IMG/VR virus record: IMGVR_UViG_3300042691_040811
Length of the DNA stretch: 51,231 nucleotides
Direction: 5' to 3' (one strand)
DNA from: a virus
Lineage: Duplodnaviria; Heunggongvirae; Uroviricota; Caudoviricetes
The position numbers were made by a program, and so were the translations under genes. Of this stretch, positions 9,589 to 34,724 are shown piece by piece (position 1 is the stretch's first letter; the number at the start of each line of letters is the position of its first letter). The notes under the pieces are model-generated. The model saw nothing but the letters and a program-made list of their open reading frames with translations. It was not told where the DNA came from and did not search any database.

Positions 9589-10080
9589 CTAGACCCATGA
9601 ATGAGCAGTTTTTACTAAGGTGGCCACATCTTCAAGGCCAAATACTAAGGGGCCGCTGGCATAGCCCCCATACTGAGGTACTTCCCAAAGATGTAAGTTG
9701 CTCCCTTTTCTGTTGACGTCCTCCCCACCGTTTACGGTGGGGGTTCCTAACCTCGCGGTCAGGGTTTCCTGCTTCTACTCCCTAAACTCAAAAGGTTTTT
9801 GGATCCACAGGCTAACGCCGCTCGCCCAGCGGCTTTTAGGTAGTTTACTGTCTTGTTAACTAAAACTGTTTGGTTTTCACAGCCTACAGCTAACAAGAGT
9901 TTTGTAAACTCACACCTATTATACCCAAGCCTGTTGTTGCCCACAAAAGCCGGACTAAAGTCCGGGGTTTTCAACCCAAAAACAACCCGTGATAACTTCT
10001 CCTCCCCCACCTTGAAACCAATTGATGCAACAAGTTTCCCCATCTTTCAGGGAGGATACTCTGGCAATGTCTTCCTCCAT
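9589..10080 (-). pseudogene. Small phage gene interrupted by an IS200/IS605 derivative
   Basis: MEEDIARVSSLKDGETCCINWFQGGGGEV (10080-9992) rejoins in frame with RKGSNLHLWEVPQYGG...AHSWV* (9711-9589) when the element is removed. Confidence 0.7.
9713..9977 (-). mobile_element. Non-autonomous IS200/IS605 (tnpB-deleted) derivative carrying an omegaRNA region
   Basis: Left-end hairpin CCGGACTTTAGTCCGG and right end ...ACGGTGGGGAGGACGTCAA match the tnpB element at 33438-34724. The left boundary could extend to 9991. Confidence 0.9.
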
Positions 10081-10082
10081 GA

Positions 10083-10478
10083 CTAGGGCTCAACCCTAGT
10101 CGGGAGGCGCCTAAAGATGGCAGGATAGGGGACAGGGTCGGCCTTGAAATTGGCCGGTAGGGAAGGAACATCGTGGGGCAACCAATGAGTGCCTATTTTG
10201 TGGCAAGAAAACACCCAGCTATCGTGGACAAGGAAAGGGCTTGATAAGCCGGGGTTGCCGGGGTTAAACCGCCAACATTGCCCTTTGCTATTGCAATCCT
10301 TGGCCTCAGGTTCCCTTTCCGTGTAGGGAATGGGGGCAAGTTGTTGATCAGATGAGGAGAAAAGGTCTAGCAAAGCATCTGCCTGAGCGTCAATGCCCAG
10401 GCTGTGCCAGTGTTCCACCTTCCTCAAGGCCTCAGCTAGCGTCCTGGCGTTCTTCATTTCAACCCCCGGTGATTCCAC
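10083..10478 (-). CDS. DUF551-like family protein
   Basis: PIPYTEREP..DC...G.CW...W...THWLPH motif shared with five other ORFs in the window. Confidence 0.6.
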   Translation of the reverse strand: MESPGVEMKNARTLAEALRKVEHWHSLGIDAQADALLDLFSSSDQQLAPIPYTEREPEAKDCNSKGQCWRFNPGNPGLSSPFLVHDSWVFSCHKIGTHWLPHDVPSLPANFKADPVPYPAIFRRLPTRVEP

Positions 10479-10492
10479 GTTATTGTAGCCAT

Positions 10493-11359
10493 TTATCCGT
10501 CTGAAGTCAAGTCCCCCTCGGCAACCGCAGGGACGGAAACCCCAAGGTCATTCAGGTTCTTGATTAACTCTTCAACTTTTTCCCTTTTAACCTTGAGATC
10601 CTTGTCCTTTTTGTAAGAAACCCAGTCCTCTGGCGGGGTTATCCAGGGGTTTGCATCAAGAGTACCTTGAATGTTCCCTCCAGAAAACCCAGTTCTCCAT
10701 GCCCTTACATCGTTATCCAAGAATAACTCTAAGAGCTTGGTTTTTGCCTCCTCCTCGCTTTTGCAAGGGTGCATCTCTTTCCATGACCCGCTACCATCAT
10801 AGTATTGATTTAACTTCCACTTTGTCTTGAGCTTGTAACCCTCCTTTACTTGACCAAATAGGCATAGAAGCCTGACCCCTTTGTCACAAGATTCGTTAAT
10901 CTCTAACTCCTCCTTAAAGGTTTTGATTGCATAGCCAGAATAAGACCTTACAACAAAGTGCGTAATCCTGCCTTCAAGAAAGTCTAAGGCTTGGCCTATA
11001 CAAGGATACTTTTCGTTATTCTCCTTAATTAGCTTCAAGTTTGACGAAAGGGCGGACTCCTCTTTACGAAGCCTCTCTATGGTTTCGTTCAATCCCTCGA
11101 TAATCTTCTCCTTCTCCTGGATTACTGAGCAATACTCTTTGGCATACCTTTCAACAGGAGGTTCGGAGAACAACTCATCTACAACTTCGATCTTACTATC
11201 CCTGATGCTTATGCTGTGACCATAAAACTCGTCATACTCCCCTGTGGCAACCTCAAAGATAACAGAGACAACATGAGAGTGCTCATCTACAGGGCACACG
11301 TAGGATGCCTCTCTACCGTCAAGTAGAAACACCTTGTCGCCTTTGTTGAAGTTTTTCAT
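10493..11359 (-). CDS. Hypothetical coiled-coil-containing phage protein
   Basis: 288-aa ORF with a central heptad-like segment. Confidence 0.7.
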   Translation of the reverse strand: MKNFNKGDKVFLLDGREASYVCPVDEHSHVVSVIFEVATGEYDEFYGHSISIRDSKIEVVDELFSEPPVERYAKEYCSVIQEKEKIIEGLNETIERLRKEESALSSNLKLIKENNEKYPCIGQALDFLEGRITHFVVRSYSGYAIKTFKEELEINESCDKGVRLLCLFGQVKEGYKLKTKWKLNQYYDGSGSWKEMHPCKSEEEAKTKLLELFLDNDVRAWRTGFSGGNIQGTLDANPWITPPEDWVSYKKDKDLKVKREKVEELIKNLNDLGVSVPAVAEGDLTSDG

Positions 11360-11369
11360 AGGGGGTAGT

Positions 11370-11780
11370 TCAGTTGGGTTCTGGCAGGGAGATGAGAAAC
11401 TCCCTTAGGGCAATCATTTCCGGGCAACGCCGAAGAGAGTCGGCATAAATCCTGACGCCATCATAACCTTTGTAGTTATGCCCATTTAGTCGTAAATGTT
11501 CTTTACAACCCTCCTCTGTAAGGGCAACCATTAAGACCTCATCGACTAGGGTGAAGTAGACCTTTCTTGCCCACTTTGGAGGGTTATCCTCATCGGCGGG
11601 TGGTTCCATTTCCTCACAGTCGTCCGTGTTGATCCACACATAATTATCCTCCCCATAGTCAGGGTCTATTCCATAGATGCGGCGTTTACCTCTGACTTGG
11701 AAGATCGGGTCAGCCGTACAACGGTTGTCCTGCTCCCTTAACCTCTTCCCGATTTCCAAAAGTTCCTTAGGGATTTCCAC
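11370..11780 (-). CDS. Ead/Ea22-like protein
   Basis: EIGKRLREQDNRCTADPIFQV...CKEHLRLNGHN...IYADS...EMIALREFL resembles the Ead/Ea22 family signature. Confidence 0.6.
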   Translation of the reverse strand: MEIPKELLEIGKRLREQDNRCTADPIFQVRGKRRIYGIDPDYGEDNYVWINTDDCEEMEPPADEDNPPKWARKVYFTLVDEVLMVALTEEGCKEHLRLNGHNYKGYDGVRIYADSLRRCPEMIALREFLISLPEPN

Positions 11781-11972
11781 TGGTAGTTTGGGTTAGGTCA
11801 AGGGTGAGTGAAAGAGACGTCACAAGGTTCACAAGCCTCTCCATTAGGCCCCTTAAACCTCACGAACACGACCTTGTTATTCCAGGAGGATAAAACCCCA
11901 TACTCCTCCTTACAGTATTCACGGTGATAGCGGACATGACGTCCCACGTCTTCTTTGGTTAACTTGCTAGGG

Positions 11973-12266
11973 TCAATCATTGCTCTTAGGAGTGACTTCT
12001 TCATCAGGAACAACCTGCTTAACAATATAGGAGCCGTCCCGGATAAACCCTCTACGGAGGTTGCCGGTCAGGGGGCTCACGTCCCAGCCGCACAGGGGGA
12101 CCAGCTTTTCAGCGATGCTGGCAAAGTTGTCGAGGTCCACCCCATACTTGCTGATAAACGCATCCTCAATCTTCTCAATGTCCTTATCCTCCTCTGGAGC
12201 GGCGACACCTAGGACAGCGGCGGCAAGCTCCGCACTTTCCCAGTGGTCTATCATTACACGATCCAT
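11973..12266 (-). CDS. Hypothetical protein
   Basis: 97-aa ORF in the tiled run. Confidence 0.55.
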   Translation of the reverse strand: MDRVMIDHWESAELAAAVLGVAAPEEDKDIEKIEDAFISKYGVDLDNFASIAEKLVPLCGWDVSPLTGNLRRGFIRDGSYIVKQVVPDEEVTPKSND

Positions 12267-12302
12267 AGGTGCTGAGGGGTGCTGAGGTTACAGTGTAGCA
12301 CT

Positions 12303-12578
12303 CTAGGCCGGGGGTGGCAACCCCTCGCTAAGAAAAGGCTGGGGGCTGGGGGTGAAGTTAAGCTCAAACCATTGTTCTTCGCTATTGCAATACAAGAGTT
12401 TGGGGTCTTGCCCATCCGGGTGATACCAAACCAGCATATTGAGCATCTTACCTTCACCCTCTACAGGGGCTGACTTCCCCCTACGGAGCTTGTAAGTTAT
12501 CCCCTCAGGGTATTCAGGGCAAGGGAGCACAATGGTGATTCCCTTTTCACCATCAAATCCACAATCTAAAGGTTTCAT
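12303..12578 (-). CDS. Hypothetical protein; paralog of 18775..19023
   Basis: MKP...GFDG.KGI....PC.E.P.G..Y.L.RGK...LVWY.P.G.D..LLY.N shared by both. Confidence 0.75.
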   Translation of the reverse strand: MKPLDCGFDGEKGITIVLPCPEYPEGITYKLRRGKSAPVEGEGKMLNMLVWYHPDGQDPKLLYCNSEEQWFELNFTPSPQPFLSEGLPPPA

Positions 12579-12610
12579 TTTTCCGGGCTATCGGGTAAAT
12601 GGCCAACCCC

Positions 12611-12910
12611 TTAATTACGAAGTTGACTCGCTACTTTTTTAATCAGGTCTTGGGTATCCAACTCTTGATTTAGCTTCCCCAAATCGAAAAGGTTTGTGAA
12701 CCCTCCCTCAGGGGTTTCCTCGCAAATTTCCCACAAGGTTTTTCCTTTCGGGAAGCCATCAGACAACGCAAGTAAAGAACAGGATGCCATGAGGCAACAT
12801 TTCTCACATAGAGATTTACAGGGCTTACTAGCAGCGGGGCGATTCACTAGGCAAACGGACTCAGCAATGCTCCGAGCCAACTTACTCAGCTTCCTTTTCC
12901 TTTCCCTCAT
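12611..12910 (-). CDS. Hypothetical Cys-rich protein
   Basis: 99-aa ORF with Cys clusters. Confidence 0.45.
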   Translation of the reverse strand: MRERKRKLSKLARSIAESVCLVNRPAASKPCKSLCEKCCLMASCSLLALSDGFPKGKTLWEICEETPEGGFTNLFDLGKLNQELDTQDLIKKVASQLRN

Positions 12911-13484
12911 AGGTTTTTGATTGAGTATCGAGGGACGGGATTAGTTTGTCAGCAGCGCTGAATACACGGTCCCACCCAACACCGTATAGACGTCCGTATG
13001 AATCCTCAATGTACCTAAGTCCAGAGACAGCGTCACGAGCAAGTTCCTTCAAGTCCCCATAGTTGTCATCAACAGAGACGTAAAGATCAATCGTGTCCCC
13101 CTTATTCTCCAAACACCAAACCTGTACTGAACGGGAGTCATCGTTTGGCATTATTAGGTTGTACCTTACTTCGCCCTCAGAACCCTTAGTAGTATCAACT
13201 ACATTCTCTTCGTAAGCACGCTTGGCCCCCCTAAGAGCCTCGTTAGGTTCCATGGGGTTTAAAAGAGCCTCAGCAAGTTGAACTTGATCCTCAGCAGATA
13301 GAGTTATCTGACGGGCCTCACATGGTGGTTCCCCACTAGAACAACTTTCAGTCCTTGGGCATCCCCAACGGTCTAGAACCTCTAGGGCAAAGAGGACGGC
13401 TCCATCCTCTTCATCCTTGGACTTCCACCCCAACCTCCAAAGCTTCCGGATATCCTCCTCTGTGGGGGTATTGTTATCAATCAT
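12882..13484 (-). CDS. Mosaic hypothetical protein (probable start MIDNN at 13484)
   Basis: Contains LARDAVSGLRYIEDSYGRLYGVGWDRVFSAADKL, also present in 19990..20514; the start overlaps the upstream stop. Confidence 0.65.
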   Translation of the reverse strand: MIDNNTPTEEDIRKLWRLGWKSKDEEDGAVLFALEVLDRWGCPRTESCSSGEPPCEARQITLSAEDQVQLAEALLNPMEPNEALRGAKRAYEENVVDTTKGSEGEVRYNLIMPNDDSRSVQVWCLENKGDTIDLYVSVDDNYGDLKELARDAVSGLRYIEDSYGRLYGVGWDRVFSAADKLIPSLDTQSKTYEGKEKEAE

Positions 13485-13831
13485 CAGACTTTGGGCAAAG
13501 GGATAGCGTTGAACGGCAGGAGGAACTGATGGACGTAGGGGAATCGTTTCGCCCAATCTACGGGACCGTAGATCCAGACCAGATCCGCCCCGTTGATTTG
13601 GCAACCTCCAAGCCAGCAATAACCGTTACCATCACACCACCCTGGACGCTCCCAGGGGCACTCAGACGACGGAACGGGCTCAAGGGACGGTGCCTCGGGA
13701 GCTTTCACCAGGGTATCCATAGCATCTACAACATCGCTAACAGCCGCTCTAAGGGAGGGATTGCCCCCCTCAAGCCTCAGGTCATGGATCTCGTTGAGCA
13801 AGCGGTAAACAGCAGTGTTCAGGTCCGTCAT
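13484..13831 (-). CDS. DUF551-like family protein
   Basis: PVPSSECPW...WCDGNGYCW...FLLPFNAIPLP; first gene after a promoter. Confidence 0.6.
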   Translation of the reverse strand: MTDLNTAVYRLLNEIHDLRLEGGNPSLRAAVSDVVDAMDTLVKAPEAPSLEPVPSSECPWERPGWCDGNGYCWLGGCQINGADLVWIYGPVDWAKRFPYVHQFLLPFNAIPLPKV

Positions 13832-13850
13832 TGGTAACCCTTAAAGAGTG

Positions 13851-13903
13851 GCGGCTTAGCCGCTTTACCTCGTTATTGTAACATCGTTCCCCGTGAGGGT
13901 CAA
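13851..13903 (-). promoter_or_regulatory. Sigma70-type early promoter with 5' hairpin
   Basis: TTGACC-17-TACAAT with TG extension, followed by GCGGC-TAA-GCCGC-CAC. Confidence 0.75.
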
Positions 13904-13908
13904 CCCCC

Positions 13909-14253
13909 TTAATCTTTTCGGGTGCGTCTGATGGTTCCCTCCCCATCAGAGTAAATCTCTTGTGAGGACGGTCTGTGCCTAAAGTAAACGCTCCATAGCC
14001 CATCTTCACATTCCATATCACAGTAGAACTCAGGATGGTCTATGTACCAACCCTCTACCCCATCCTCTCTAGACCCAAGCTCTTTAACGCAAGTTCTGCT
14101 GGGAAAGTCTGGGTCAGCAAGTAGGGACTCTGCAATGGATAAACTAGGGTCATAACCCAAGTCGTTAAGAACCTTGCACTTCCTTAGGGCATTGTAAACA
14201 GATGCTGCCAGGTCTCTCAACACCCTTTCCGAACTGTTAGTTGTACGGTCCAT
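13909..14253 (-). CDS. Hypothetical protein
   Basis: 114-aa ORF in the tiled run. Confidence 0.5.
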   Translation of the reverse strand: MDRTTNSSERVLRDLAASVYNALRKCKVLNDLGYDPSLSIAESLLADPDFPSRTCVKELGSREDGVEGWYIDHPEFYCDMECEDGLWSVYFRHRPSSQEIYSDGEGTIRRTRKD

Positions 14254-14425
14254 TTTCTCTCGACAGGTCTCCTAAGATAGACTTTAGGTCACTCACTGTA
14301 AGAGTTGCCTCTCTAGTTTCGTGACCTGAGTTCAAGGTCAGGATTTCCTCCTGGTCAACTCCCCTCATTCTAGAAAGCTCTTTTAGAAACTTCCTGACTC
14401 GGTTAGCAGAGTGTTCACTAGTCAT
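14237..14425 (-). CDS. Hypothetical protein
   Basis: 62-aa ORF overlapping the next start. Confidence 0.5.
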   Translation of the reverse strand: MTSEHSANRVRKFLKELSRMRGVDQEEILTLNSGHETREATLTVSDLKSILGDLSRENGPYN

Positions 14426-14498
14426 TGACGGTGTATCCCGGATTTACCCTACGGACAACGGCCTTAAGGCCTGCATAATGGCAGTTTTCATTACTTCT

Positions 14499-14726
14499 TT
14501 ACTTGCAGGACTGGTAGGCATCCCAGTAAACATCGGATAGCTCCCTATCTGTTACTTTGTTATCCGGGTCGTAGAAACACTTTGATAGGGCATAGTAGCA
14601 TAACCAGGAAACTTGCTGGGCGGTTACATTACCTATGAGACATGCACCAGGTTCCCAACTTAAGGCACATTTGAGAGTTTCCTCGGCAATGTCTTTAATG
14701 GAGGGGTTGTCCGAGTAGTCAGTCAT
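14499..14726 (-). CDS. Hypothetical protein
   Basis: 75-aa ORF with ATGA-type coupling to the upstream gene. Confidence 0.55.
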   Translation of the reverse strand: MTDYSDNPSIKDIAEETLKCALSWEPGACLIGNVTAQQVSWLCYYALSKCFYDPDNKVTDRELSDVYWDAYQSCK

Positions 14727-14941
14727 GACGTTGGTGATTCGTTTCTAGCGATAGCAGCGTTAGCCCAGAAAATAGCTTGCTCTAGGTTGGTTAGAGCTAA
14801 AGATTGCTCCCTGGATTGCGGAGTAAGGTTTAAAATAGTATCCGCAAGAGAGCGAGCTTGGCTGCGAAGTTGGTTGTAGCGCTCTGGCTGATCTCCGAAC
14901 GGGGCGTGATAAGTGAAGTTGGTTTCAAGGTTGTAACTCAT
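14723..14941 (-). CDS. Acb2/Tad1-like helical-hairpin protein (putative anti-defence nucleotide sponge)
   Basis: NFTYHAP..DQPERYNQLR...TPQSREQSLALTNLEQAIFWANAAIARN; the C-terminal helix resembles the Tad1 SRE...ALT..EEA..W motif. Confidence 0.65.
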   Translation of the reverse strand: MSYNLETNFTYHAPFGDQPERYNQLRSQARSLADTILNLTPQSREQSLALTNLEQAIFWANAAIARNESPTS

Positions 14942-14948
14942 GGTTTAC

Positions 14949-15206
14949 TCATGTGGTGGATTTACTTTTACCCATCCATGCTTTTTTAACAGCACGGAAT
15001 AGTACAAAAATAGAGTTGTACACTTCGCTAACCGACTCCAGAATTCCCCCTAGCATACCTTTGACTGCCCCGACCCCAAGGTGGTAAACTGAGACAGTGA
15101 CTACAACAGGTATTGCTATAGCCAAGGTAACTATTATTAGAGGTTTCCTTAAGAGGTGGGATTCAATACTTGCCAGGTCTTTTGGAAGTCTTGCTCTCAT
15201 AATCAT
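14949..15206 (-). CDS. Small membrane protein
   Basis: Hydrophobic segment PLIIVTLAIAIPVVVTVSV. Confidence 0.5.
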   Translation of the reverse strand: MIMRARLPKDLASIESHLLRKPLIIVTLAIAIPVVVTVSVYHLGVGAVKGMLGGILESVSEVYNSIFVLFRAVKKAWMGKSKSTT

Positions 15207-15592
15207 TCCCCCTGGCTAGGGTTAGCGTCTTCAAAACTGGCGGGAACCCACTGAGGTGTATGCTTCCAAGGGGGTTGTCTCCACACTTTGTCCCAAGGGG
15301 AATACTGAGGGGTTTTCCAATCTTCATTCATAGAGAGAACACAACCCTCCCCATCTGCATCTTCTTTGGTGGGCGCCCTGTCAGTGATCCATTCTTCCCC
15401 GCTGGGTAGGTGGGCAGGCGCCACCCAACTTTCTGTATGCGTCCAGTGCGCCCCCACCATCACATTGCACCATGCTATCGGAGTGTAAGAGCTAGTGTGG
15501 GAACCTACAAATCTTACATAAACATCACCTTCCTCGTCAGCATCCTCAAAGGTTGGCGAGCGATCCGTAATCCACCTATTGTTCACATCCAT
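15203..15592 (-). CDS. Tandem two-domain DUF551-like protein
   Basis: WITDR.PT.EDAD.EG.V...W..V....W.HT..WV.. occurs twice. Confidence 0.7.
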   Translation of the reverse strand: MDVNNRWITDRSPTFEDADEEGDVYVRFVGSHTSSYTPIAWCNVMVGAHWTHTESWVAPAHLPSGEEWITDRAPTKEDADGEGCVLSMNEDWKTPQYSPWDKVWRQPPWKHTPQWVPASFEDANPSQGE

Positions 15593-16080
15593 TCTTCACT
15601 CCATTCAGTTTTTTTCTTAATAGCAAAATTAGCAAGTTCCTCTAATGTATCACATTGAGGTATGGAAAACTTTTGGCAAACAATGTCTACGTTTCCCTTT
15701 CTCCAGAACCCATCAGGGCAACAAATTGCCAACTTGCGTGAGGCAGCACAGAGGCCCAACTCCAGGAGAGAAATAGGGCTTTTTGTTCCGGGCTGCAGAT
15801 ACATCAGGATCAAATCAGCCCTATTTAAAGCAGCAAGTTCCCACTCAACTTGTTCCCTAAACGGAGGATTATCAGAGCGCTGCTCCCAACTTGAGTCCCA
15901 ATCGTCCCTCCTCGGATTATAAATGATAAGACTGTGGTCCTTAAGTAAATCTTGCAGCTCAATTTGCCAATCCTCAGCAACCCCCATCTCAATAGAGCCT
16001 GCTAAGAAAATAGACAATCCTTCGTAACCTAAAATTGGAGAAGGCGGTTTAACAACAATGTTTGTTCCCATAGTGTTCAA
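15583..16080 (-). CDS. Nucleoside 2-deoxyribosyltransferase-like protein
   Basis: IFLAGSIE...WQ, YNPRRDDW, QVEWEL..L..AD, SPISLLELG. Confidence 0.8.
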   Translation of the reverse strand: MNTMGTNIVVKPPSPILGYEGLSIFLAGSIEMGVAEDWQIELQDLLKDHSLIIYNPRRDDWDSSWEQRSDNPPFREQVEWELAALNRADLILMYLQPGTKSPISLLELGLCAASRKLAICCPDGFWRKGNVDIVCQKFSIPQCDTLEELANFAIKKKTEWSEEWM

Positions 16081-16277
16081 TCCAAATAAGCAACTTCCCA
16101 GGTAGGGTGGAGTAGTAGGGGGCGTTGATCCCCCTCAAGTCTAACACGGATGTAGGGTCCTGACGACCCCAAAATCTTTCCCTCCCTTCGCTGACCATTA
16201 TCCCCACCTGTATAGACGATTTTCCTCCCTCTAAAAGCAGGTACTCCGTAGAAGTTTCGTATGTAGTTCAAACTCAT
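16077..16277 (-). CDS. Hypothetical protein
   Basis: MSLNYIRNFYGVPA.RG...HPTW, a recurrent small phage ORF pattern. Confidence 0.6.
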   Translation of the reverse strand: MSLNYIRNFYGVPAFRGRKIVYTGGDNGQRREGKILGSSGPYIRVRLEGDQRPLLLHPTWEVAYLD

Positions 16278-16510
16278 TGCTCTGGTTTTTTACTCTTTGA
16301 TCTTAACTTTTCTAGAGCTTTCTTTAACTTTTCGTTACTCTCATCAATCCTTTTATTGTGCTGCTCAAGCTCCCTGACACTTTCCTTTAAAGATTCTAAT
16401 ATTTCCCTCTCCATCTTTTCGTTTTCCTTGGTTATCTTTACAGTTTCTACAATTAAAAGAATGGATAGTGCAATAAGGGCAGCATCTAAAAGATTCCAAA
16501 GAATTGCCAT
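16274..16510 (-). CDS. Membrane-anchored coiled-coil protein
   Basis: N-terminal hydrophobic helix followed by an E/K-rich coil. Confidence 0.6.
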   Translation of the reverse strand: MAILWNLLDAALIALSILLIVETVKITKENEKMEREILESLKESVRELEQHNKRIDESNEKLKKALEKLRSKSKKPEQ

Positions 16511-16655
16511 AGTTTAAACCAACCTATTTTTACAGCAGGGTCATGACTTTTGAGGGGACCTACCCTGAAACGAACAGGCTTACCTTTCTCCCTCCAGCAA
16601 TCGCTCAGACTCAAGTAAAAAAGCCCATTTTTCCATTCATGCCTAATTAACTTGA

Positions 16656-16844
16656 TCATTTTTCTTTGCAAAGGGAAACCCCTATGGTAGAGGCAATTGC
16701 CAAACAAACGACTACTTTAACCCAGCTTGCATCGTAATTAGGATTTGTAGGAACAAGGTGAAACAAATTACCACATACGGTAAACCCACAGGTGAACACT
16801 GTTAGAATGGCAAATGCTTTCAGCGGGGTTGGGATTTTACTCAT
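16656..16844 (-). CDS. Small two-TM membrane protein
   Basis: Two hydrophobic segments. Confidence 0.5.
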   Translation of the reverse strand: MSKIPTPLKAFAILTVFTCGFTVCGNLFHLVPTNPNYDASWVKVVVCLAIASTIGVSLCKEK

Positions 16845-17486: not shown

Positions 17487-17500
17487 GGTTCTTCAGCGGT

Positions 17501-17556
17501 GGCGGCCTCAGCCGCCTTACTTTGTAATTGTAGCACCCTCGCCCCCAGGGCGTCAA
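17501..17556 (-). promoter_or_regulatory. Sigma70-type early promoter with 5' hairpin
   Basis: TTGACG-18-TACAAT (TGCTACAAT), followed by GGCGGC-TGAG-GCCGCC-AC. Confidence 0.8.
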
Positions 17557-17852
17557 CCCCTGCTAAGCTCACAAGGATTATTCGGATTACAACCAACAAA
17601 ATTGCTATTTAGTAGGCCGACACTTACCTGAATGTGACCCAGTTTAAGCTCAATGTCCAAAAGGGATACCTTTGATAGAATCTTAACCCATAGGTTGACC
17701 CCACCGCCCGAAATCACATAGGAACGATCCTTTGGGTTTTCCCGGTCAAAGAAAAACATTAGGAGGTTTTTGTTGCCTACCCTAATAAGTTCTAGACAGG
17801 CATAAAACTCCCCTCTCTCATCCAGATTTTTCTCAAATTTCCAAAGCTTCAT
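17553..17852 (-). CDS. Hypothetical protein
   Basis: 99-aa ORF directly after a promoter. Confidence 0.55.
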   Translation of the reverse strand: MKLWKFEKNLDERGEFYACLELIRVGNKNLLMFFFDRENPKDRSYVISGGGVNLWVKILSKVSLLDIELKLGHIQVSVGLLNSNFVGCNPNNPCELSRG

Positions 17853-25018: not shown

Positions 25019-25093
25019 TGCACGCTGTGGGAATCGAACCCACCTTCTGCAGGTTATGAGCCTGCGGCATTCCGACCAGATTGCTAAGCGTGC
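25019..25093 (-). tRNA. tRNA with CAT anticodon (elongator Met or Ile2)
   Basis: Acceptor GCACGCT/AGCGTGC, anticodon arm GCAGG-CTCATAA-CCTGC, T arm GTGGG-TTCGATT-CCCAC; no encoded CCA; lacks initiator hallmarks. Confidence 0.9.
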
Positions 25094-26616: not shown

Positions 26617-26642
26617 CCTTTTAAGTGTCGTTTAAGGAAAAA

Positions 26643-26714
26643 TACCTCTACAGGGATTCGAACCCTATTCATTCGGTTATAGGCCGAAGGCTTTAACCCA
26701 TAAGCAATAGAGGC
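26643..26714 (-). tRNA. trnI: tRNA-Ile(UAU) with C at position 33
   Basis: Acceptor GCCTCTA/TAGAGGT, anticodon arm TTCGG-CCTATAA-CCGAA, T arm TAGGG-TTCGAAT-CCCTG. Confidence 0.85.
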
Positions 26715-26767
26715 AGAAAGGGAGGATTAAACTCCTCCTAACTTAGCAGTTGGCGCTAATACGGGGT

Positions 26768-26930
26768 TTGGCGTTAAACTGTCATTAACAGATTCTTAAT
26801 CTCACGATTAAGTGTTCCTGCTTCGTTCTTTTAGACTCAATATTGGCCTTAAAGTCCACAGGCTTAGTCCGCTCGCCCAGCGGTATTTTAATTGTCCCTT
26901 ACTTACCCAGGAAAATTGCTTGGTTTTTGC
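26768..26930 (-). ncRNA. Diverged stand-alone omegaRNA-like copy lacking the IS left end
   Basis: CCGCTGGGCGAGCGG hairpin, AGCCTGTGGA, GAAGCAGGAA, CGTGAGATTAAGAAT and terminal ACGCCAA align with the tnpB 3' end/right end. Confidence 0.7.
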
Positions 26931-27187: not shown

Positions 27188-27261
27188 CGACCTCTGATGG
27201 ATTCGAACCATCGACATACTGCTTAGAAGGCAGTTGCTCTAATCCGCTGAGCTAAGAGGCC
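27188..27261 (-). tRNA. trnR: tRNA-Arg(UCU)
   Basis: Acceptor GGCCTCT/AGAGGTC, D arm GCTC/GAGC, anticodon arm ACTGC-CTTCTAA-GCAGT, T arm GATGG-TTCGAAT-CCATC. Confidence 0.95.
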
Positions 27262-27637: not shown

Positions 27638-27902
27638 CTTGCTCCCCCTTGTATTCTTCCCATTTGTCTAAAGGGCACTTCATGTTAGCAAAGGACGTCT
27701 TTATTCCGAGAATACACAAGCAAATTTGACACTGATCGGACTTTGGTAAGTACCGGTCGCAAGAATGACATAATTCTAATCGGTTTAAGCGCACATCTCT
27801 GGGAACCAGTTTGGGATTTTCTAAGACCCTGCGTGCGCTATCCTTAAGAGAGTCCCCGAAGGATCTCCTACAACATTCCTCTTTATGCTCTTCCATACTC
27901 AT
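27627..27902 (-). CDS. Cys-rich hypothetical protein
   Basis: RLELCHSCD...QCQICLC...K...CPLDKW. Confidence 0.65.
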   Translation of the reverse strand: MSMEEHKEECCRRSFGDSLKDSARRVLENPKLVPRDVRLNRLELCHSCDRYLPKSDQCQICLCILGIKTSFANMKCPLDKWEEYKGEQDDN

Positions 27903-27903
27903 C

Positions 27904-28182
27904 TCAACTAGAAATTTTTTGAGAATTGTCTAAAGGGCTAACCCCAAGCAATGCTTCAAAAAATGCCACCCTATCTTTCTCCATCGTGTAATCAACTTGG
28001 TATTTTTTACAAAGTTCTACTATGGCTTCCTCATGAGGGGAGCAAGCCCCCCGTGTATAATCGCAATAGCGGATATGGTTTAAGAAGCAATCTTTTACAA
28101 TGTCGTATAGTTCGGCCATGTCCGCCTCGGGCACCGATAAGAATCTGTCTTGGAGAACGTGGGCCGGAAATGAAACTTCCAT
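27904..28182 (-). CDS. Hypothetical protein
   Basis: 92-aa ORF in the tiled run. Confidence 0.55.
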   Translation of the reverse strand: MEVSFPAHVLQDRFLSVPEADMAELYDIVKDCFLNHIRYCDYTRGACSPHEEAIVELCKKYQVDYTMEKDRVAFFEALLGVSPLDNSQKISS

Positions 28183-28237
28183 TTTGTTTAGGTGTTGGTT
28201 GGGGGGCGAAATGTCTCACCCCCCTTAGCAATTTAGG

Positions 28238-29071
28238 CTATGCCGCAGCCATTTCCAGGGCAACTCCCATAGCCCTCAAGTTGAGGGTGCTGCCCCGGCC
28301 AAAGTTGGCATAGTTGAAGCGGCCCTCATCGGTTTTACGGCTATGATTAGATGAATAGTCAGTGATTGCGTTAACCGCATCATAGAAGGTTTTACCCTCA
28401 TTACCTGCCCCATTATAGAACAGACCGTTGAGGGTTTCAACCAGAGAGTCCCGCATCTTAACAATCTCTTTGTCATAGACCCCCTCAAGAAATTTGCTGA
28501 ATTGATTAGCGCTGCAACTCGCCTTAGCGAGTTTCTCAGCATTTACACTGTAGGCCGCCATCGCCACATTAACAAAGTCAATGACTTCCTTAGTCTCTAG
28601 GATGCGATCGTTCACCCCTTCGTGATGACGAAACTTACTCTCAATGGACGCATAGCTCATTGCAAAGGTGTTGTTGCAAATTACTCTTACGTTTGAGGGT
28701 CCGATGGCCACAGAGTGATTGCCCACGTGCCCATTAAGCAGCGTAATGAATGCTTTATAGTCCTCGCCCAAAACTTGGAACTCTTGGGAGATTTGAGCCT
28801 GGATGAAAACCTTAGCCCCATGGTTAAGGTGACCGATATTCTCAATGGTAAGAACACCCTCCTCAACCATAGGATTTACCAGTCGGAGCAAATCTCGGTT
28901 TTGAACAGTTTCGTAAGCCCCTGAGACAACCCCAAGAGGAACCTCGTTATCCGAGCGAACGATGGCAACCTTGTCGTCAAGACGAATCATGTTGCCCTGG
29001 TGGTCTGGGTAGTAAATGGGGCGTTGCTCAACTTGCCAGTCAAGATTGTTGGTAATGGCGAATGCAGTCAT
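28238..29071 (-). CDS. DUF932 phage/plasmid-like protein
   Basis: LDWQVEQRP...AIVRSD...LGVV...Y..VQN; LLNGHVG...SNVRVICNNT. Confidence 0.9.
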   Translation of the reverse strand: MTAFAITNNLDWQVEQRPIYYPDHQGNMIRLDDKVAIVRSDNEVPLGVVSGAYETVQNRDLLRLVNPMVEEGVLTIENIGHLNHGAKVFIQAQISQEFQVLGEDYKAFITLLNGHVGNHSVAIGPSNVRVICNNTFAMSYASIESKFRHHEGVNDRILETKEVIDFVNVAMAAYSVNAEKLAKASCSANQFSKFLEGVYDKEIVKMRDSLVETLNGLFYNGAGNEGKTFYDAVNAITDYSSNHSRKTDEGRFNYANFGRGSTLNLRAMGVALEMAAA

Positions 29072-29272
29072 TGTTTTAAGGGGTTTAAGGTCAGGAGGTA
29101 TAAGCTAAGGATTAAATCCTAGTTGAATTTTCCATAGAAAGCGTAAGCCTCGGCCTCATCGTAGAAAGTGCGATAAATCGTGGTAACCCAGCGGTTTGCA
29201 CGATACGTTCCAACCTCAACAACCCACTTCTCCCCCAGATCCTTGATCTTGGCCATCGTGCCCTCAGACGGT

Positions 29273-29327
29273 GGCGGCCTCGGGCCGCCTTACCCCTTTA
29301 TTGTAGCACATTGCTCTAAGGGGTCAA
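29273..29327 (-). promoter_or_regulatory. Sigma70-type early promoter with 5' hairpin
   Basis: TTGACC-16-TACAAT (TGCTACAAT), followed by GGCGGC-CCGAG-GCCGCC-AC. Confidence 0.75.
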
Positions 29328-29340
29328 GCCCCTTGAGAGT

Positions 29341-29577
29341 CTAGTCCTTGTTCCCCCTCCCCCACCATTGAGAGCACCTTTGATCGCACTCTAAAGTTCC
29401 AGTGGGGTAGTCCATCCCTGCCTCAAAGGCATTTTGCATCAGCTCCTGAGGGTTTTTACCTGTGATCCTTTTCTGGTAGTCTGCTCTGGCCTCCGTTGGA
29501 CTCAAGAGAAAGAGCAAGGTCAGAAAAGAAGCCACAATGCTAGGTGTCACAGCCATGTCAATAAAGCAAAGAAGCAA
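29341..29577 (-). CDS. Small exported or membrane-anchored protein
   Basis: Hydrophobic N-terminus ending in TEARA. Confidence 0.5.
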   Translation of the reverse strand: MLLCFIDMAVTPSIVASFLTLLFLLSPTEARADYQKRITGKNPQELMQNAFEAGMDYPTGTLECDQRCSQWWGRGNKD

Positions 29578-30303
29578 TTAGGCAAATTGGTGTAACTCTT
29601 CCGAGTCCACATCCCAGACACATAGTGTATCGTGGTTGTCCTCATCCGCTTTAGTGCGGGTAGAACCCCCCATTCCCCCATCTAGAACAAGGTTTTTTTC
29701 GGAAATGTAAATAGCATGGTAGTGACCTGCTACACGCACCCATTCCCGATCGGTTTCCCATTCCCACCAGAACACCCGATCCTCTTGCTCAGGCCATTTA
29801 GCCCCCTTCACCCTAGGTCCATAGATCATAGCATCTTTCGACTTTGTAGTAACTTGGTCAATGCGATGGAACCCCTCATAAGTCGGAGGGAGAATCCAAC
29901 GGGGGAACATTGCATGGGCACAGCGGTATTCCTTGCCGGAGCAATCACGGAAAATAACACCGTAGGGAAAAGTGTTAAGCCAGTCTGCAACTTCTTGAAT
30001 CGGAATGTTTTCTTCCTCAAAATCTTTCAAAGTTCTCTGAAAGTCTTCGGAAGGATACACCTTATTACCTTTGGCAAATCGCTCTAGTTTGCTTTGGTGA
30101 TTAGACCTGAGCACTACAGCACCCATGTCCTTTTCGATGTTTTTAACAAGGTGGTAAACACCGGCAGAGTCGCTCGTTTCGACCCGGCTATCAAAGAGGT
30201 CTCCCAAAAGGATAGGAGTCAGCTTATTGCGATGGCAAAAGCTAACAGCTTGCTCTAAAGGTTTTAGCTGGGAATGGACATCCCCGATAATTGCATAACT
30301 CAT
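29578..30303 (-). CDS. Calcineurin-like metallophosphoesterase (true start MSYAII at 30303)
   Basis: IGDVH, LGDLFD, RSNH, AHA, AGHYH, LDGG motifs; the extra N-terminal ORF-track sequence comes from the inserted element. Confidence 0.9.
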   Translation of the reverse strand: MSYAIIGDVHSQLKPLEQAVSFCHRNKLTPILLGDLFDSRVETSDSAGVYHLVKNIEKDMGAVVLRSNHQSKLERFAKGNKVYPSEDFQRTLKDFEEENIPIQEVADWLNTFPYGVIFRDCSGKEYRCAHAMFPRWILPPTYEGFHRIDQVTTKSKDAMIYGPRVKGAKWPEQEDRVFWWEWETDREWVRVAGHYHAIYISEKNLVLDGGMGGSTRTKADEDNHDTLCVWDVDSEELHQFA

Positions 30304-30313
30304 TTGAAATAGG

Positions 30314-30578
30314 GGGTTTGAGATCCCGGACTTTAGTCCGGCTTTTAAGGGCAACAACAGGCTTGGGTATAATAGGTGTGAGTTTACAAAACTCTTGTTA
30401 GCTGTAGGCTGTGAAAACCAAACAGTTTTTGTTAACAAGGCAGTAAACTACCTAAAAGCCGCTGGGCGAGCGGCGTTAGCCTGTGGATCCAAAAACCTTT
30501 TGAGTTTAAGGAGTAGAAGCAGGAAACCCTGACCGTGAGGTTAGGAATCCCCGCCGTTTGAGGTAGGGAGGACGCCAA
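30314..30578 (+). mobile_element. Non-autonomous IS200/IS605 (tnpB-deleted) derivative carrying an omegaRNA region
   Basis: Near-identical (inverted) to 9713-9977; left hairpin CCGGACTTTAGTCCGG; right end partly decayed (...GTAGGGAGGACGCCAA). Confidence 0.9.
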
Positions 30579-30596
30579 GTTGTTTTACCTGAAGAC

Positions 30597-30655
30597 GGGC
30601 AAGAGACCCTTGCCCCATACCCCCTTATAGTAGCACACTTGGGGGCCAGGGTCAA
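30597..30655 (-). promoter_or_regulatory. Promoter of the phosphoesterase gene with 5' hairpin
   Basis: TTGACC-17-TACTAT (TGC extension), followed by GGGCAAG-GGTCT-CTTGCCC. Confidence 0.65.
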
Positions 30656-31158
30656 GGTTTTTCAGAGCCGTAACTAACTAAAGTAACTTTACCCCACTTT
30701 GCTACGTCGTCTGAGAACCTTTCAATCATTGGGATTATCCGGGTTTTATCTCCACGTGCATACCCGCACCCGATCATTGGAAATCCGACATTCACTCTCC
30801 TCCCCATACTCTCACAACCTTTGGCTATAAACGGGCACAGCCTATTGAGAAAGGTTTCAAAAGCGTCATACTCAAAGACATCTTCATACCCACTCCACCT
30901 ATACTGTGTATAGGCGTTTATGGCGCAAAACCTATGGCCATTGTCACCATCAACATAGGCAAAACTAAAATTCCCCAACTTTCCCCTATCCCCTTTGAGG
31001 GTAGCAAAGTCAGCCGCTTCAACACTGGGATACTTAGCAGCAATTTGCTTAGCAATCCCTGACCTCATTTTGTGAAAGCAGTTGCACCCCTGAACCACAA
31101 TATCGAATTGGCCCCGTTCGGCCAACTCAAGCAGATCCCCCTGAACCCTTTCCATCAA
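30652..31158 (-). CDS. Macrodomain (ADP-ribose binding/hydrolase) protein
   Basis: VQGDLL...IVVQGCNCFHKMRSGIAKQIA.KYP...INAYTQY...FPMIGCG.ARGD. Confidence 0.9.
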   Translation of the reverse strand: MMERVQGDLLELAERGQFDIVVQGCNCFHKMRSGIAKQIAAKYPSVEAADFATLKGDRGKLGNFSFAYVDGDNGHRFCAINAYTQYRWSGYEDVFEYDAFETFLNRLCPFIAKGCESMGRRVNVGFPMIGCGYARGDKTRIIPMIERFSDDVAKWGKVTLVSYGSEKP

Positions 31159-31327
31159 TACCCCAACACTTTGATTTCACAACCAGGGTTCAGCTCCTTT
31201 GCGATGAACCAGGCATTGGTAGCTCCGTTAGCAACCAACTCGATAACCCTTTCTTTTTTGTTTTTACCTGTGATAGAAACTTGATAAGTTTGTACAGACA
31301 TTTTGCAAAAAGGTTTAAAATTACTAT

Positions 31328-31687
31328 TTACCCACATCCTGACATGGACTCGAACCCCATCTGACTTACACGGGAGGGATTATTCCTGTATTCGACCACA
31401 AGATCAGAAATTTCCCCTATTTCGTCTTTTACGGAAGAGTCCCCTGTATCAACCCCAAGGATTAACTCCTCAACCTTTTCCTTTAGGTAGCCATCTCCAT
31501 CAAATAAGTAGTGAGAGTTGAGACTTAGGTAAAGGTCAACTGTGCAAGGGTCAAGAGTGTAGGGGACATCTTGCAAGAATCCAAGGGAGGATAGGCGCTC
31601 CAGTGTCCCAATGAGCCACAAAGTCTGTAAATCCTTGCGGCTGATGCTAAGTTCCATAGAATTGAGAAAAGGCGGCCACTCCGCCAC
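31328..31687 (-). CDS. Hypothetical protein
   Basis: 119-aa ORF. Confidence 0.55.
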   Translation of the reverse strand: MAEWPPFLNSMELSISRKDLQTLWLIGTLERLSSLGFLQDVPYTLDPCTVDLYLSLNSHYLFDGDGYLKEKVEELILGVDTGDSSVKDEIGEISDLVVEYRNNPSRVSQMGFESMSGCG

Positions 31688-31787
31688 TTCCCTACCAGCT
31701 TAGTTGCTCTCTACGTTCCCGACAAACTAATTTAACAAATTCTTCCGTTTTTGCGGAGGGGTAGCGATACAAAACTTTACACAATAG

Positions 31788-32105
31788 TCAGGGGGCCCTC
31801 CTGTCGGAAACCTTAAGGGTGATTGTATTGCCATAGGCTCCCTCTTTTAGGTATTTTTCAAATTTTAGGAAAGCAATGGCAGCCTTCTCTTCCTCAGTAA
31901 GAGGTTTCTTAAATAGGCCCCCAACAGAGTAACCGATGCTATATCCAACTACGCAACTTAGGAAGAATTTTGCGTAGGGTCCAAAGTTAGGGGAACTGCC
32001 AATAGCGCTGCCAGCAGATGCTCCTAAGAAGATTGCAACAGATACCCCCATCGCATTATTAAAAATTGCCCTGTTTGCAAATGTTAGGAATTTGTTAAAT
32101 TTCAT
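31788..32105 (-). CDS. Two-TM membrane protein
   Basis: Two Gly/Ala-rich hydrophobic segments. Confidence 0.6.
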   Translation of the reverse strand: MKFNKFLTFANRAIFNNAMGVSVAIFLGASAGSAIGSSPNFGPYAKFFLSCVVGYSIGYSVGGLFKKPLTEEEKAAIAFLKFEKYLKEGAYGNTITLKVSDRRAP

Positions 32106-32136
32106 GACGATGGTAAGGCTGGTGCCACCTTAGCAC

Positions 32137-32164
32137 AAAAAAAGAGGGGGAGCAGCCCCCCTCT
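32137..32164 (-). terminator. Intrinsic terminator
   Basis: AGAGGGGG/CCCCCTCT stem followed by T6 on the minus strand after the DUF6011 gene. Confidence 0.7.
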
Positions 32165-32192
32165 ACCCATCCGTAAGGACGATACCACGGGA

Positions 32193-32858
32193 TCAGGCCA
32201 TAGCCAGAACCTGATCCAGCAGCGCCTCAGCCTGATGCTCCCGGTAGTCGGCCTCAAGCTCGGCACGGGCGTCAGGGCCAGCGAGGTTGCTCAGGCAGAT
32301 CGGGCCAATGCCCCCGAGCACACTCACAGGGTCGCTCAGCTCACGGCCACAGCAGCTACAGTTTCCGGTTTGGCGGCCATAGGCAATGGCGGCCTGCTGA
32401 GGGTTTTCAGAAACCTTAGCCAGGGCCTCGGCAATCCGGCTATCCCCGTTGAACACCCCTGCAGGGGTGATCTTGCCAGCGTAGGCACCCGTGGAATAGT
32501 AAACATAGGCAGATCCAGCATTAAAACCCTTGGTGACAGCCTTGACCGTGACTCCATCAAAGCGGAGCACAACCTGGCGTTTGGCACCTTCCTGCATACG
32601 GTTCACCGTGGTGACAAGGTTGAGAAATTCCCCTGTGGCTTCGGGAATCACAGCGGTAGCGTTGGCGTTGAGGAAATCCTGAGCCACCTTGAGCGCCCAC
32701 AGATCATTCTTCTCCCAGCCCTTGTCCTGGCCGCCCAGAATCCAGTTAAGGAAGTCGGTGCGGGGAAGCTTGGCGACGATGCCATAGGCATCGGTGACGT
32801 TCAGATCGGTCGAGAAGGAGATGACCTTGCCAGCGTTGGTGGTGAGGGTGAAGTCCAT
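32193..32858 (-). CDS. DUF6011-containing protein (start MDFTL at 32858)
   Basis: C-terminal TGNCSCCGRELSDPVSVLGGIGPIC zinc motif; high-GC coding. Confidence 0.8.
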   Translation of the reverse strand: MDFTLTTNAGKVISFSTDLNVTDAYGIVAKLPRTDFLNWILGGQDKGWEKNDLWALKVAQDFLNANATAVIPEATGEFLNLVTTVNRMQEGAKRQVVLRFDGVTVKAVTKGFNAGSAYVYYSTGAYAGKITPAGVFNGDSRIAEALAKVSENPQQAAIAYGRQTGNCSCCGRELSDPVSVLGGIGPICLSNLAGPDARAELEADYREHQAEALLDQVLAMA

Positions 32859-32872
32859 GGTTTTGAGGCGGT

Positions 32873-32980
32873 GGGGGCGTCGCCCCCTTACCCCATTATT
32901 GTAGCACCTTGCCCCAAGGGTTGACGACTCCCGGAGTTTGGAAGGGGGGGCAAGCACCTTGCCTAGGGGGTTGGCGACTC
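32873..32980 (-). promoter_or_regulatory. -35-less promoter with two 50-bp tandem repeat units and a 5' hairpin
   Basis: TGCTACAAT at 32898-32906; + strand AGCACCTTGCC..AGGG(G)TTG(A/G)CGACTC at 32903 and 32953; hairpin GGGGGC-GAC-GCCCCC-AC. Confidence 0.7.
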
Positions 32981-33028
32981 AATGGTTTGGCGGAGGGACA
33001 AGCGAAGTTAGTGAGTGGCACCCCTTTC

Positions 33029-33277
33029 TTAAATTCTGGCATTTTTAGGTGTCTTGCTAATTGGTAGGGGCTCTCCGGCAGGAATCCACCCCCGCTTTAG
33101 CGCATAATGGGGGTCACCTTTCTTATTAACCCACACCCAGTAGTTCCACCCTTCAAATTTCACAAAGATTCTATCCTTTTCTTCTACGTCAACAGTGACA
33201 TTACGGGGGCGATCTCCCCTCCGCTTCGCTCTTTCAGACTTTGGTACCAGATGATACTTTTTTACTTTAGTTGGCAT
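33029..33277 (-). CDS. Basic hypothetical protein
   Basis: 82-aa K/R-rich ORF. Confidence 0.55.
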   Translation of the reverse strand: MPTKVKKYHLVPKSERAKRRGDRPRNVTVDVEEKDRIFVKFEGWNYWVWVNKKGDPHYALKRGWIPAGEPLPISKTPKNARI

Positions 33278-33437
33278 TGAGGGGTAAGTGTGGTTGCTGC
33301 CATGCTATAGGCCCTTACCTAACCCGCAACCCTCCATCACCGAACCCACACGTTGCCCCTAGGCACCTTAAGAAATTCTTTAGTTTCCCCATGCGTTCGT
33401 GGCGCCGTTCCTTCAAATGCCCTCGTACAACTTCTCT

Positions 33438-34724
33438 TTGACGTCCTCCCCACCGTGAACGGTGAGGATTCCTAACCTCACGATTAGGTTTTCCTGCTTC
33501 TTCCCCTTAAACTCAAATATGGTTTAAGGATCCACAGGCTAACGCCGCTCGCCCAGCGGCTAGAACATTCTTAGCTGCGTTGATGTCCCTGTCTAATAGG
33601 GCTCCGCAGTTTTGACAATTCCAAACCCTATCACTAAGGGAAAGCCTATCGGCTTTCTTGGAATTACAGACGTGGCAAATTTGGCTGCTGGGGTAAAAGC
33701 GGTCTATTTTAACCACCGTTCTTCCATACCACTCAGCTTTATACTCCAACTGTCTTGTGAACTCATACCAGCTAGCATCATAGATAGACTTTCTTAAACC
33801 TTTGCTGGCGTTTTTAACCATCTCAGTAACACACAAGTCTTCAACAAAAATCGCTTGGTTTTCACGAATCAGCGTTGTCGACAATTTGTGTAAAAAGTCT
33901 AGTCTGCAATTTACTACAGTTTCATGAACCTTAGCAACTTTTCTTTTTTGTTTTAAATAGTTCCTACTACCCTTTTGTTTCCTGCTAAGTCTCCTTTGCT
34001 CCTTAGCTAATTTATGCTGAAATTTTCTGTAAAACCTAGGGTTCTCAACTTTGAAACCTTTGTCCGTGGTCAGAAAACTTTCCAACCCAAGGTCAATTCC
34101 TACGGAATTGACACTGTGAGGGAGTTTAGGGGGCCAAGAACCCTTAAACTTGAAAGAAATAAACCACCTCCCACTACTTTTCTTGGTGATAGTAGCAGAA
34201 GTTATCTCAGAATCTTCTGGAATGAGCCGGGAGTAAACAACGGGCAAGGGTTCCTTAACCTTAGCAACATAAAGCTCCCCTTCTTTAAACCTGAAGGCGT
34301 TTTTAGTCAAGGTGATGCTATAGGTTCTCCCTTTCTTTTTAAAGTTAGGGAATTTAGAACGCCCATCAAAGAAACTCTTGAAAGCTCTATCGACATTACG
34401 AACAGACTGCTGCAAGGCATCAACAGAAACTTCCTTAAGGTAAAAAAGTTCAGGAATCTTTTTCCAAACTGTAATTTTCTTTACAGCTTCATAACCATTC
34501 CACTTAGCTTTAGGGTTAAGTTTTCTTTCTTCTTTATGCTCAAACAACGCTTTGTTGTAAACAACACGGGCGCAACCAAGCGTTTGGTTCAGGAAAACTT
34601 CCTGTTCCAAAGTCGGATAGAACCTGTATTTGTAAGAGAAAAGACGTTGTTTGCTCATGGCCTTCTTTTACCCAAGTCTGTTGTTGCTCTCAAAAGCCGG
34701 ACTAAAGTCCGGGGTCTCAAACCC
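33438..34724 (-). mobile_element. IS200/IS605-family (IS1341-type, tnpB-only) element
   Basis: Left-end hairpin CCGGACTTTAGTCCGG; right end GAAT-CCTCACCG-TTCA-CGGTGGGG-AGGACG-TCAA; no tnpA. Confidence 0.9.
33513..34658 (-). CDS. tnpB: RNA-guided endonuclease TnpB
   Basis: N-terminal YKYRFYPT HTH, RuvC motifs GIDLG / FVEDL / DRDINAA, and CHVC-CQNC zinc ribbon; catalytic D-E-D intact. Confidence 0.97.
   Translation of the reverse strand: MSKQRLFSYKYRFYPTLEQEVFLNQTLGCARVVYNKALFEHKEERKLNPKAKWNGYEAVKKITVWKKIPELFYLKEVSVDALQQSVRNVDRAFKSFFDGRSKFPNFKKKGRTYSITLTKNAFRFKEGELYVAKVKEPLPVVYSRLIPEDSEITSATITKKSSGRWFISFKFKGSWPPKLPHSVNSVGIDLGLESFLTTDKGFKVENPRFYRKFQHKLAKEQRRLSRKQKGSRNYLKQKRKVAKVHETVVNCRLDFLHKLSTTLIRENQAIFVEDLCVTEMVKNASKGLRKSIYDASWYEFTRQLEYKAEWYGRTVVKIDRFYPSSQICHVCNSKKADRLSLSDRVWNCQNCGALLDRDINAAKNVLAAGRAALACGSLNHI

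Follow-up and report, generated by a model that had tools for sequence, protein, structure and literature searches.

The stretch of DNA analysed here (the window) comprises 51,231 nt (51 kb) of phage DNA from IMG/VR record IMGVR_UViG_3300042691_040811, and all window-wide counts given below refer to it. It harbors an intact tnpB-only element, two protein-less copies (A and B) of the type known as miniature inverted-repeat transposable elements (MITEs) or palindrome-associated transposable elements (PATEs), and a relic (C) that comprises the right-end half of a further copy (Table 1). Judged from their sequences, all copies belong to the IS200/IS605 family, as an IS1341-type element accompanied by PATE derivatives. 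Searching with a covariance model derived from eight right ends returned exactly four window sites, 33438-33575(-), 9713-9848(-), 30443-30578(+) and 26768-26899(-), with E values from 1e-56 to 4e-40, and both a BLAST search of the tnpB region against the window and a repeat finder recovered all copies. A preliminary description of this DNA had placed four copies at these sites, and all three approaches located them there. Its right ends were exact, whereas comparison of the tnpB element, A and B with four further copies (full-length elements in G001 from IMG/VR and in the Logan contig L092, and a third MITE in L008) moved the left ends 10-11 nt outwards; relic C runs to about 26963. These additional nucleotides are shared within subfamilies and different between them, indicating that they belong to the element.

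Table 1. Features of the tnpB element, its protein-less copies and the adjoining gene in the window (ORF, open reading frame; TAM, transposon-associated motif).
Feature	Position	Strand	Remarks
tnpB-only IS200/IS605 (IS1341-type) element, 1297 nt	33438..34734	-	left end 34734, right end 33438, finishing ..GACGTCAA
tnpB ORF, 381 aa	33513..34658	-	intact; D189, E273, D358; CxxC pairs at 328 and 348
omegaRNA scaffold of tnpB element, 124 nt	33438..33561	-	overlaps last 49 nt of tnpB ORF; four stems, z -5.0
TCAC, likely TAM / TnpA target	34735..34738	-	adjoins left end of tnpB element; TCAY register in six insertions
Putative guide of tnpB element (AGAGAAGTTGTACGAGGGCA)	33418..33437	-	3' flank of right end; guide role taken from TnpB biology
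MITE/PATE copy A, 276 nt	9713..9988	-	left end, conserved interior, omegaRNA scaffold; model score 152 bits
Likely TAM of copy A, TCAC	9989-9992	-	adjoins left end
Putative guide of copy A	9693-9712	-	3' flank of right end
TATAAT box of copy A	9918..9923	-	within 45-nt block identical in three MITE copies
MITE/PATE copy B, 275 nt	30304..30578	+	opposite orientation; right end GCCAA; last hairpin weakened; model score 146 bits
Likely TAM of copy B, TCAT	30300-30303	+	adjoins left end
Putative guide of copy B	30579-30598	+	3' flank of right end
TATAAT of copy B	30368-30373	+	MITE -10 box
Relic C, right-end half with MITE-type interior	26768..~26963	-	no left-end hairpin; model score 117 bits; compensatory pairs
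Putative guide of relic C	26748-26767	-	3' flank of right end
Metallophosphatase gene	29578..30303	-	ATG is the reverse complement of the likely TAM of copy B

TnpB proteins are the ancestors of Cas12, and most work on their natural role has concerned bacterial chromosomes and plasmids. The TnpB encoded in the window matches the Pfam domains OrfB_IS605 (PF01385), TNB (PF07282) and HTH (PF12323), all above cut-off, and aligns end to end with ISDra2 TnpB (8H1J/8EXA; E 2e-66), with the RuvC D-E-D residues and both CxxC pairs conserved. Its catalytic triad is intact when aligned to that of ISDra2, whose counterpart residues are D191, E278 and D361, a numbering that reportedly goes back to Karvelis 2021. 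The uninterrupted ORF, the Pfam domains and the ISDra2 alignment bear out the preliminary description of an intact nuclease, which is also, as proposed there, the single TnpB of the window. A second ORF of the same length (381 aa; 42866-44011, minus strand) was considered as a hidden tnpB and rejected, as it encodes an unrelated zeta-toxin-type kinase; it adjoins a methyltransferase with DUF4942 (44036-45451, minus strand). The ratio of nonsynonymous to synonymous substitution rates (dN/dS) of the TnpB is 0.13-0.18 against three phage-borne relatives, indicating that the protein is maintained by purifying selection. Relatives at 59-87% identity form about 20 protein clusters, every one metagenomic and in cyanophage-like contexts, and identity then falls sharply to <=53% for cyanobacterial proteins; the nearest cellular TnpBs are cyanobacterial and about 50% identical, with nothing above 50% in a protein scan of genome contigs. 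A DNA-pattern search of the genome contigs for the element returned no match. Full-length copies of the element, 81-82% identical at the nucleotide level, occupy other sites in G001 and L092, and the same phage (99.8%) recovered from another metagenome (L096) carries the element at the same site. A Y1 (HUH) TnpA was sought in the six frames of the window by a motif scan and by phmmer with a Y1 transposase, and nothing significant was found, in agreement with the preliminary description; G001 has no match to Y1_Tnp (PF01797) either, and all element copies thus appear to be non-autonomous.

The insertion sites follow a common rule. TCAY (TCAC or TCAT) precedes the left end in six independent insertions with six different flanks, and is likely the TAM. 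The empty site of copy B is present in two relatives of the window, L098 and L099 (79-85% nucleotide identity), which are collinear with it on both sides and skip exactly 30304-30578, with the junction CTCAT/GTTG and no target duplication. In a third relative, whose phosphatase is 95% identical, the corresponding gene gap measures 72 nt against 348 nt in the window, which fits an empty copy-B site. These comparisons show that insertion is precise, lies 3' of TCAY and involves no target duplication. Terminal inverted repeats are absent, and subterminal hairpins are found at both ends, the left one reading CCGGAC-TTTA-GTCCGG and the right one CCCCACCG-loop-CGGTGGGG, the latter placed 10 nt before the end, so that the right end finishes in TCAA 10 nt past its hairpin, which is also the geometry of IS608. 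Insertion at a fixed tetranucleotide without duplication, together with subterminal hairpins and the TCAA end, is a hallmark of the IS200/IS605 family, and the TCAY-linked insertion without duplication is what a Y1 TnpA acting by "peel and paste" on single strands would be expected to leave. Such a transposase would have to be supplied from elsewhere, either by the host or by an unseen part of the phage, and the precise TCAY-linked insertion of the MITEs suggests that they may be mobilised by it in trans.

Element-free alleles in related phages had been anticipated in the preliminary description, and site B is indeed free of the element in L098 and L099, though without an exact match to guide B; the exact empty-site junctions of copy A and of the tnpB element gave no match in IMG/VR. 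Scans of IMG/VR with the genes flanking the copy B and tnpB element sites also returned no relatives. The tnpB element site is rearranged in relatives L097 and L105. Contig L105, which is syntenic with window positions 37948-34888, lacks the element at that site; about 1.7 kb further on, the contig ends in 37 nt of tnpB sequence that are oriented the opposite way (L105:3969-4005), indicating that element positions vary between lineages.

Copies A and B, which are 93% complementary to each other, share with the tnpB element a left end of about 60 nt (88-92% identical) and a right end of about 124 nt (86% identical). Between the two ends lies a conserved interior of 85 nt, whose homology to the tnpB coding region does not exceed that of shuffled controls. 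These copies have no coding capacity, and the ORFs that overlap them are run-ins from flanking DNA. The MITE type is known at three sites, namely A, B and the metagenome contig L008, and a scan of IMG/VR with the MITE-specific block gave no match. Relic C is evidently an older copy, now lacking its left end. Its identity to the other copies is about 65-68% over the 124-nt scaffold, with a best local match of about 78-80% over a 93-nt core; the relic is absent from the syntenic contigs L097 and L099, and homology breaks at about 26963. The preliminary description had all derivatives keeping the omegaRNA/right-end region. This is upheld for all of them, each carrying a foldable and covarying scaffold; A and B retain both ends and not the right end alone.

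Right-end homology of the MITEs to the tnpB element extends over the last 49 nt of the ORF and on to the right end itself, which is the expected position of an omegaRNA scaffold. All four window copies fold alone into the same stems (z -5.0 to -2.1), and RNAalifold on eight copies yields five helices in which 97% of cells are paired and five pairs are changed on both sides. Many of the single changes in the scaffold convert G-C to G-U, which preserves pairing in RNA and not in DNA, and the conservation of pairing lies above both shuffled and slid controls. The omegaRNA model also finds full-length matches beside TnpB genes in cyanobacterial genomes, for example 78 in one Okeania genome, and therefore represents the omegaRNA of the clade to which this TnpB belongs. 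When the window is compared with G001, identity is 94% in the scaffold, against a divergence of 52% at the synonymous sites of the neighboring ORF, indicating that the scaffold is strongly conserved in full-length elements. Each copy keeps the whole scaffold, beyond the terminal hairpin that a transposase would need. No curated Rfam family of the omegaRNA type reached its gathering score in the window; the sub-threshold matches to HgcC (22 bits against a cut-off of 50, E 0.056) and sot0042, a Haloferax "sot" RNA (17 bits, E 0.32), agree in direction but are weak and are not counted as evidence. Both kinds of RNA were later tied to TnpB elements.

These patterns bear on the alternative that the derivatives are inert, decaying leftovers moved by TnpA, in which the scaffold survives through youth or because transposition needs it and whose RNAs TnpB ignores. 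A MITE-tnpB homology that spans all 124 nt, far beyond what a Y1 transposase is known to need, substitutions that preserve pairs through G-U or compensatory changes, and the ability of relic C to fold at its low scaffold identity all argue against such decay. In favor of it, protein-less omegaRNA remnants also accompany TnpB fragments in cyanobacteria: at G002:C4:191812-192149, in a cyanobacterial metagenome-assembled genome, the best match to the omegaRNA model stands beside only the last ~78 residues of a TnpB, indicating that such leftovers occur in host-type genomes. Right ends can also be shared between the two types of element. The right end of a MITE (L008:1456-1579) shows 100% identity, over 124 nt, to that of a tnpB-linked copy (L010:133-256) found in another sample of the same project, and the left part of the L008 copy is of MITE type and only about 88% like the window MITEs; this identity suggests exchange, recombination, gene conversion or co-evolution between MITEs and full-length elements.

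The MITEs further differ from the tnpB copies in a candidate promoter. At the homologous place, the tnpB copies all have TAAAAG ahead of the tnpB ribosome-binding site, whereas all three MITE copies (A, B and L008) read TATAAT, so that the difference pointed out in the preliminary description extends to all copies of both types. The box and the bases that follow it form a 45-nt block that is identical in A, B and L008, which overall differ by 7-12%. This block is the best-conserved part of the MITE, a further point against inert leftovers. The left-end hairpin with its T-run scores as terminator-like. The three protein-less copies occupy intergenic sites or the edges of genes. Copy A is flanked by a gene on one side and a terminator-like hairpin on the other, and relic C shares the strand of tRNA-Arg and tRNA-Ile, between which it is situated, so that it would be co-transcribed with them. 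Copy B, according to a reconstruction of its excision and to the empty-site alignment, separates the metallophosphatase gene from a repeated phage promoter/leader cassette and faces the promoter, and its putative guide is antisense to the metallophosphatase leader. A mechanically called ORF (29578-30438, minus strand) starts at a TTG inside this MITE; homologues and empty sites share the ATG at 30303, which is therefore the real start of the gene, and gene callers over-extend it by 45 codons.

The arrangement around copy B raises the question of whether the MITEs have been co-opted as regulatory modules, whose -10 box, terminator-like left hairpin and antisense transcription tune neighboring genes. 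The conserved TATAAT block, the terminator-like hairpin and the placement of copy B exactly between the promoter/leader and the ATG of the metallophosphatase gene, facing the promoter, would all suit such a role. However, close relatives manage without the copy B insertion, position and orientation vary between copies, and nothing separates regulation from a side effect of insertion, which leaves co-option an improbable explanation.

The 3' flank of the right end, which is the putative guide, is different for each of the four copies and reads as written in the preliminary description. Each guide is the local flank, and the only predicted target is therefore the element-free allele of the same site. 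The copies do not form a CRISPR-like array, as they are scattered across 25 kb in either orientation and every copy has its own flank as guide. We consider it probable, as the best explanation of the whole, that these are selfish IS200/IS605 elements residing in a freshwater cyanophage, with guides that TnpB uses to cut empty sites. Each copy would be transcribed, the MITEs from their own -10 box and A and C also by read-through from phage promoters, and the resulting RNAs would be bound by the TnpB of the full-length element. The TnpB-RNA complex would then cleave its own site wherever this is free of the element (TCAY plus flank), and recombination with an occupied genome would restore the element or spread it among replicating or co-infecting phage genomes. 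The use of extra guides in trans by one TnpB, with homing between co-infecting phages, is plausible. The stronger form of this idea, in which dispersed, self-promoted, protein-less omegaRNA cassettes serve as extra guides and one nuclease drives several loci at once into element-free relatives when phages co-infect, is put forward tentatively, as a possibility that we judge less likely than not.

A different proposal is that the guides have been retargeted to host DNA or competitor phages, which would turn the locus into a true multi-guide weapon. Its sole and indirect support is that several different flanks accompany a single nuclease. Every flank is local phage sequence at the insertion, and the window and eleven related loci contain no second match to any guide (<=3 mismatches plus TAM), hits there staying at chance level; we regard such retargeting as highly improbable.

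Several observations weigh against the use of these guides by TnpB, or against its stronger form, the multi-site drive or weapon proposed in the preliminary description. The stronger form is weakened by the lack of any second guide match. The two empty B alleles known (L098 and L099, 15-20% diverged) would mismatch guide B, from which a 1-nt deletion and one mismatch set them apart. The last hairpin of copy B is weakened and its end reads CCAA instead of TCAA, relic C is without a left end, and changes in the last hairpin and the terminal TCAA are seen in B and C alike. The MITE scaffolds are 86-87% identical to that of the resident tnpB element, and 6-7 positions at which tnpB-linked scaffolds never vary are changed in A and B. 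Because its -35 is weak, the MITE TATAAT box was missed by the consensus promoter scan. To these are added the protein-less scaffold remnants of cyanobacterial genomes, the failure of DNA-pattern and protein scans of genome contigs to find a close cellular relative of the element, and the failure to find a source of TnpA in the six frames of the window and in G001. The lesions of the terminal hairpin and TCAA motif in B and C, the lost left end of C, the cyanobacterial remnants, and the absence of off-site or matching guide targets in the window, the eleven related loci and the empty B alleles are also what inert leftovers would be expected to present. Set against the pairing-preserving substitutions, the full extent of the scaffold and the conserved promoter block, the explanation by leftovers is rather unlikely, and the preferred reading remains that of selfish elements whose guides direct TnpB to their own empty sites.

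The genomic context identifies the carrier as a virus. Phage-type genes of the window include a collagen-repeat tail-fibre gene, phage glycosyltransferases, a phrog_1735 protein, an RNA ligase and three tRNAs; with few exceptions its genes are on the minus strand, and the TnpB of the window is recorded on a contig of 117.8 kb. A cultured-phage collection contains no nucleotide relatives of the window. Among related contigs, L092 has a photosystem reaction-centre gene and Thg1, and L093 a phage capsid gene; these genes, together with the cyanobacterial affiliation of the nearest cellular TnpBs (about 50% identity), make a large freshwater cyanophage the most likely carrier. The three tRNA genes lie on the minus strand at 25019-25093, 26642-26715 and 27188-27261, with types listed as Met(cat), Ile(tat) and Arg(tct). 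The 809-aa collagen-repeat protein (1187-3616, plus strand) matches phage tail-fibre families and explains the dense families of GGN direct repeats at 1367-2949. In addition, a repeated intergenic cassette is found at 32882-32948, 41090-41156, 45843-45909, 29284-29350, 17527-17559 and 9520-9559; read on the minus strand, it consists of a TTGAC.. -35, an extended -10 (TGCTACAAT / TGCTACTAT) and a GC-rich hairpin, and this promoter-hairpin cassette is also present in G001, L008 and L097.

The tnpB element resembles other IS1341-group elements (relatives of ISDra2 and IS608) in its TnpB with HTH, RuvC D-E-D and zinc ribbon, in an omegaRNA that overlaps the 3' end of tnpB, in its subterminal hairpins and in insertion 3' of a short motif without duplication. 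It differs from them in residing in a cyanophage, in its TAM TCAY, in having no partner TnpA that could be found in the window, and in being only about 50% identical to the nearest cellular TnpB. PATEs often encode omegaRNAs, to be used in trans by the TnpB of other elements (Meers et al. 2023, PMC10055086). Like the PATEs of Geobacillus stearothermophilus and other bacteria and archaea described there, the MITEs of the window are protein-less, have both IS ends and encode a putative omegaRNA that would need a TnpB in trans; unlike those PATEs, they reside in a virus genome, have a MITE-specific perfect -10 box and an 85-nt interior unlike the tnpB element, and are known from three copies. No report of omegaRNA-bearing PATEs in a phage was found in the literature.

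The predicted outcome, in which an element-free allele is cut and the element is copied by repair, is that of non-restorative homing and of phage homing endonucleases (PMC13565253). A 2026 review lists non-restorative homing of transposons into co-infecting phages or plasmids in its Table 1 and refers to the spread of IS605 through a plasmid population independently of TnpA (PMC13565253). In contrast to phage homing endonucleases, the system described here would be guided by RNA and not by protein, and is predicted from sequence in this phage; the homing of IS605 was shown in plasmid populations and not in phages (PMC13565253). Genes for tnpB have also been reported in the cultured cyanophages A-1(L), Mic1, PA-SR01 and MaMV (e.g. 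bioRxiv 10.64898/2026.02.14.705889), which likewise carry a tnpB-only element in a cyanophage genome. In A-1(L), the element and the copies of the host are reportedly identical (bioRxiv 10.64898/2026.02.14.705889), whereas the lineage described here has no close host copy and is accompanied by protein-less derivatives. The concepts of trans-guides and of homing have thus already been published (PMC10055086; PMC13565253) and are not new, and the present finding is a phage instance of a known transposon arrangement.

Collectively, this lineage provides a compact natural test case, with an intact nuclease under selection, three separate guide cassettes, defined TAM and targets, and relatives with empty sites. 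It could be used to test the homing of TnpB between viruses and the trans use of guides encoded apart from the nuclease. As the TAM (TCAY), the 124-nt scaffold, the guides and an empty site are defined, the reading in which several guides act in trans is sharply testable, including in a heterologous host. If true, it would amount to an RNA-guided gene drive that operates naturally in viruses, at several loci and without TnpA, and to a living example of guides that have been separated from the gene of their nuclease, a step thought to precede CRISPR arrays.

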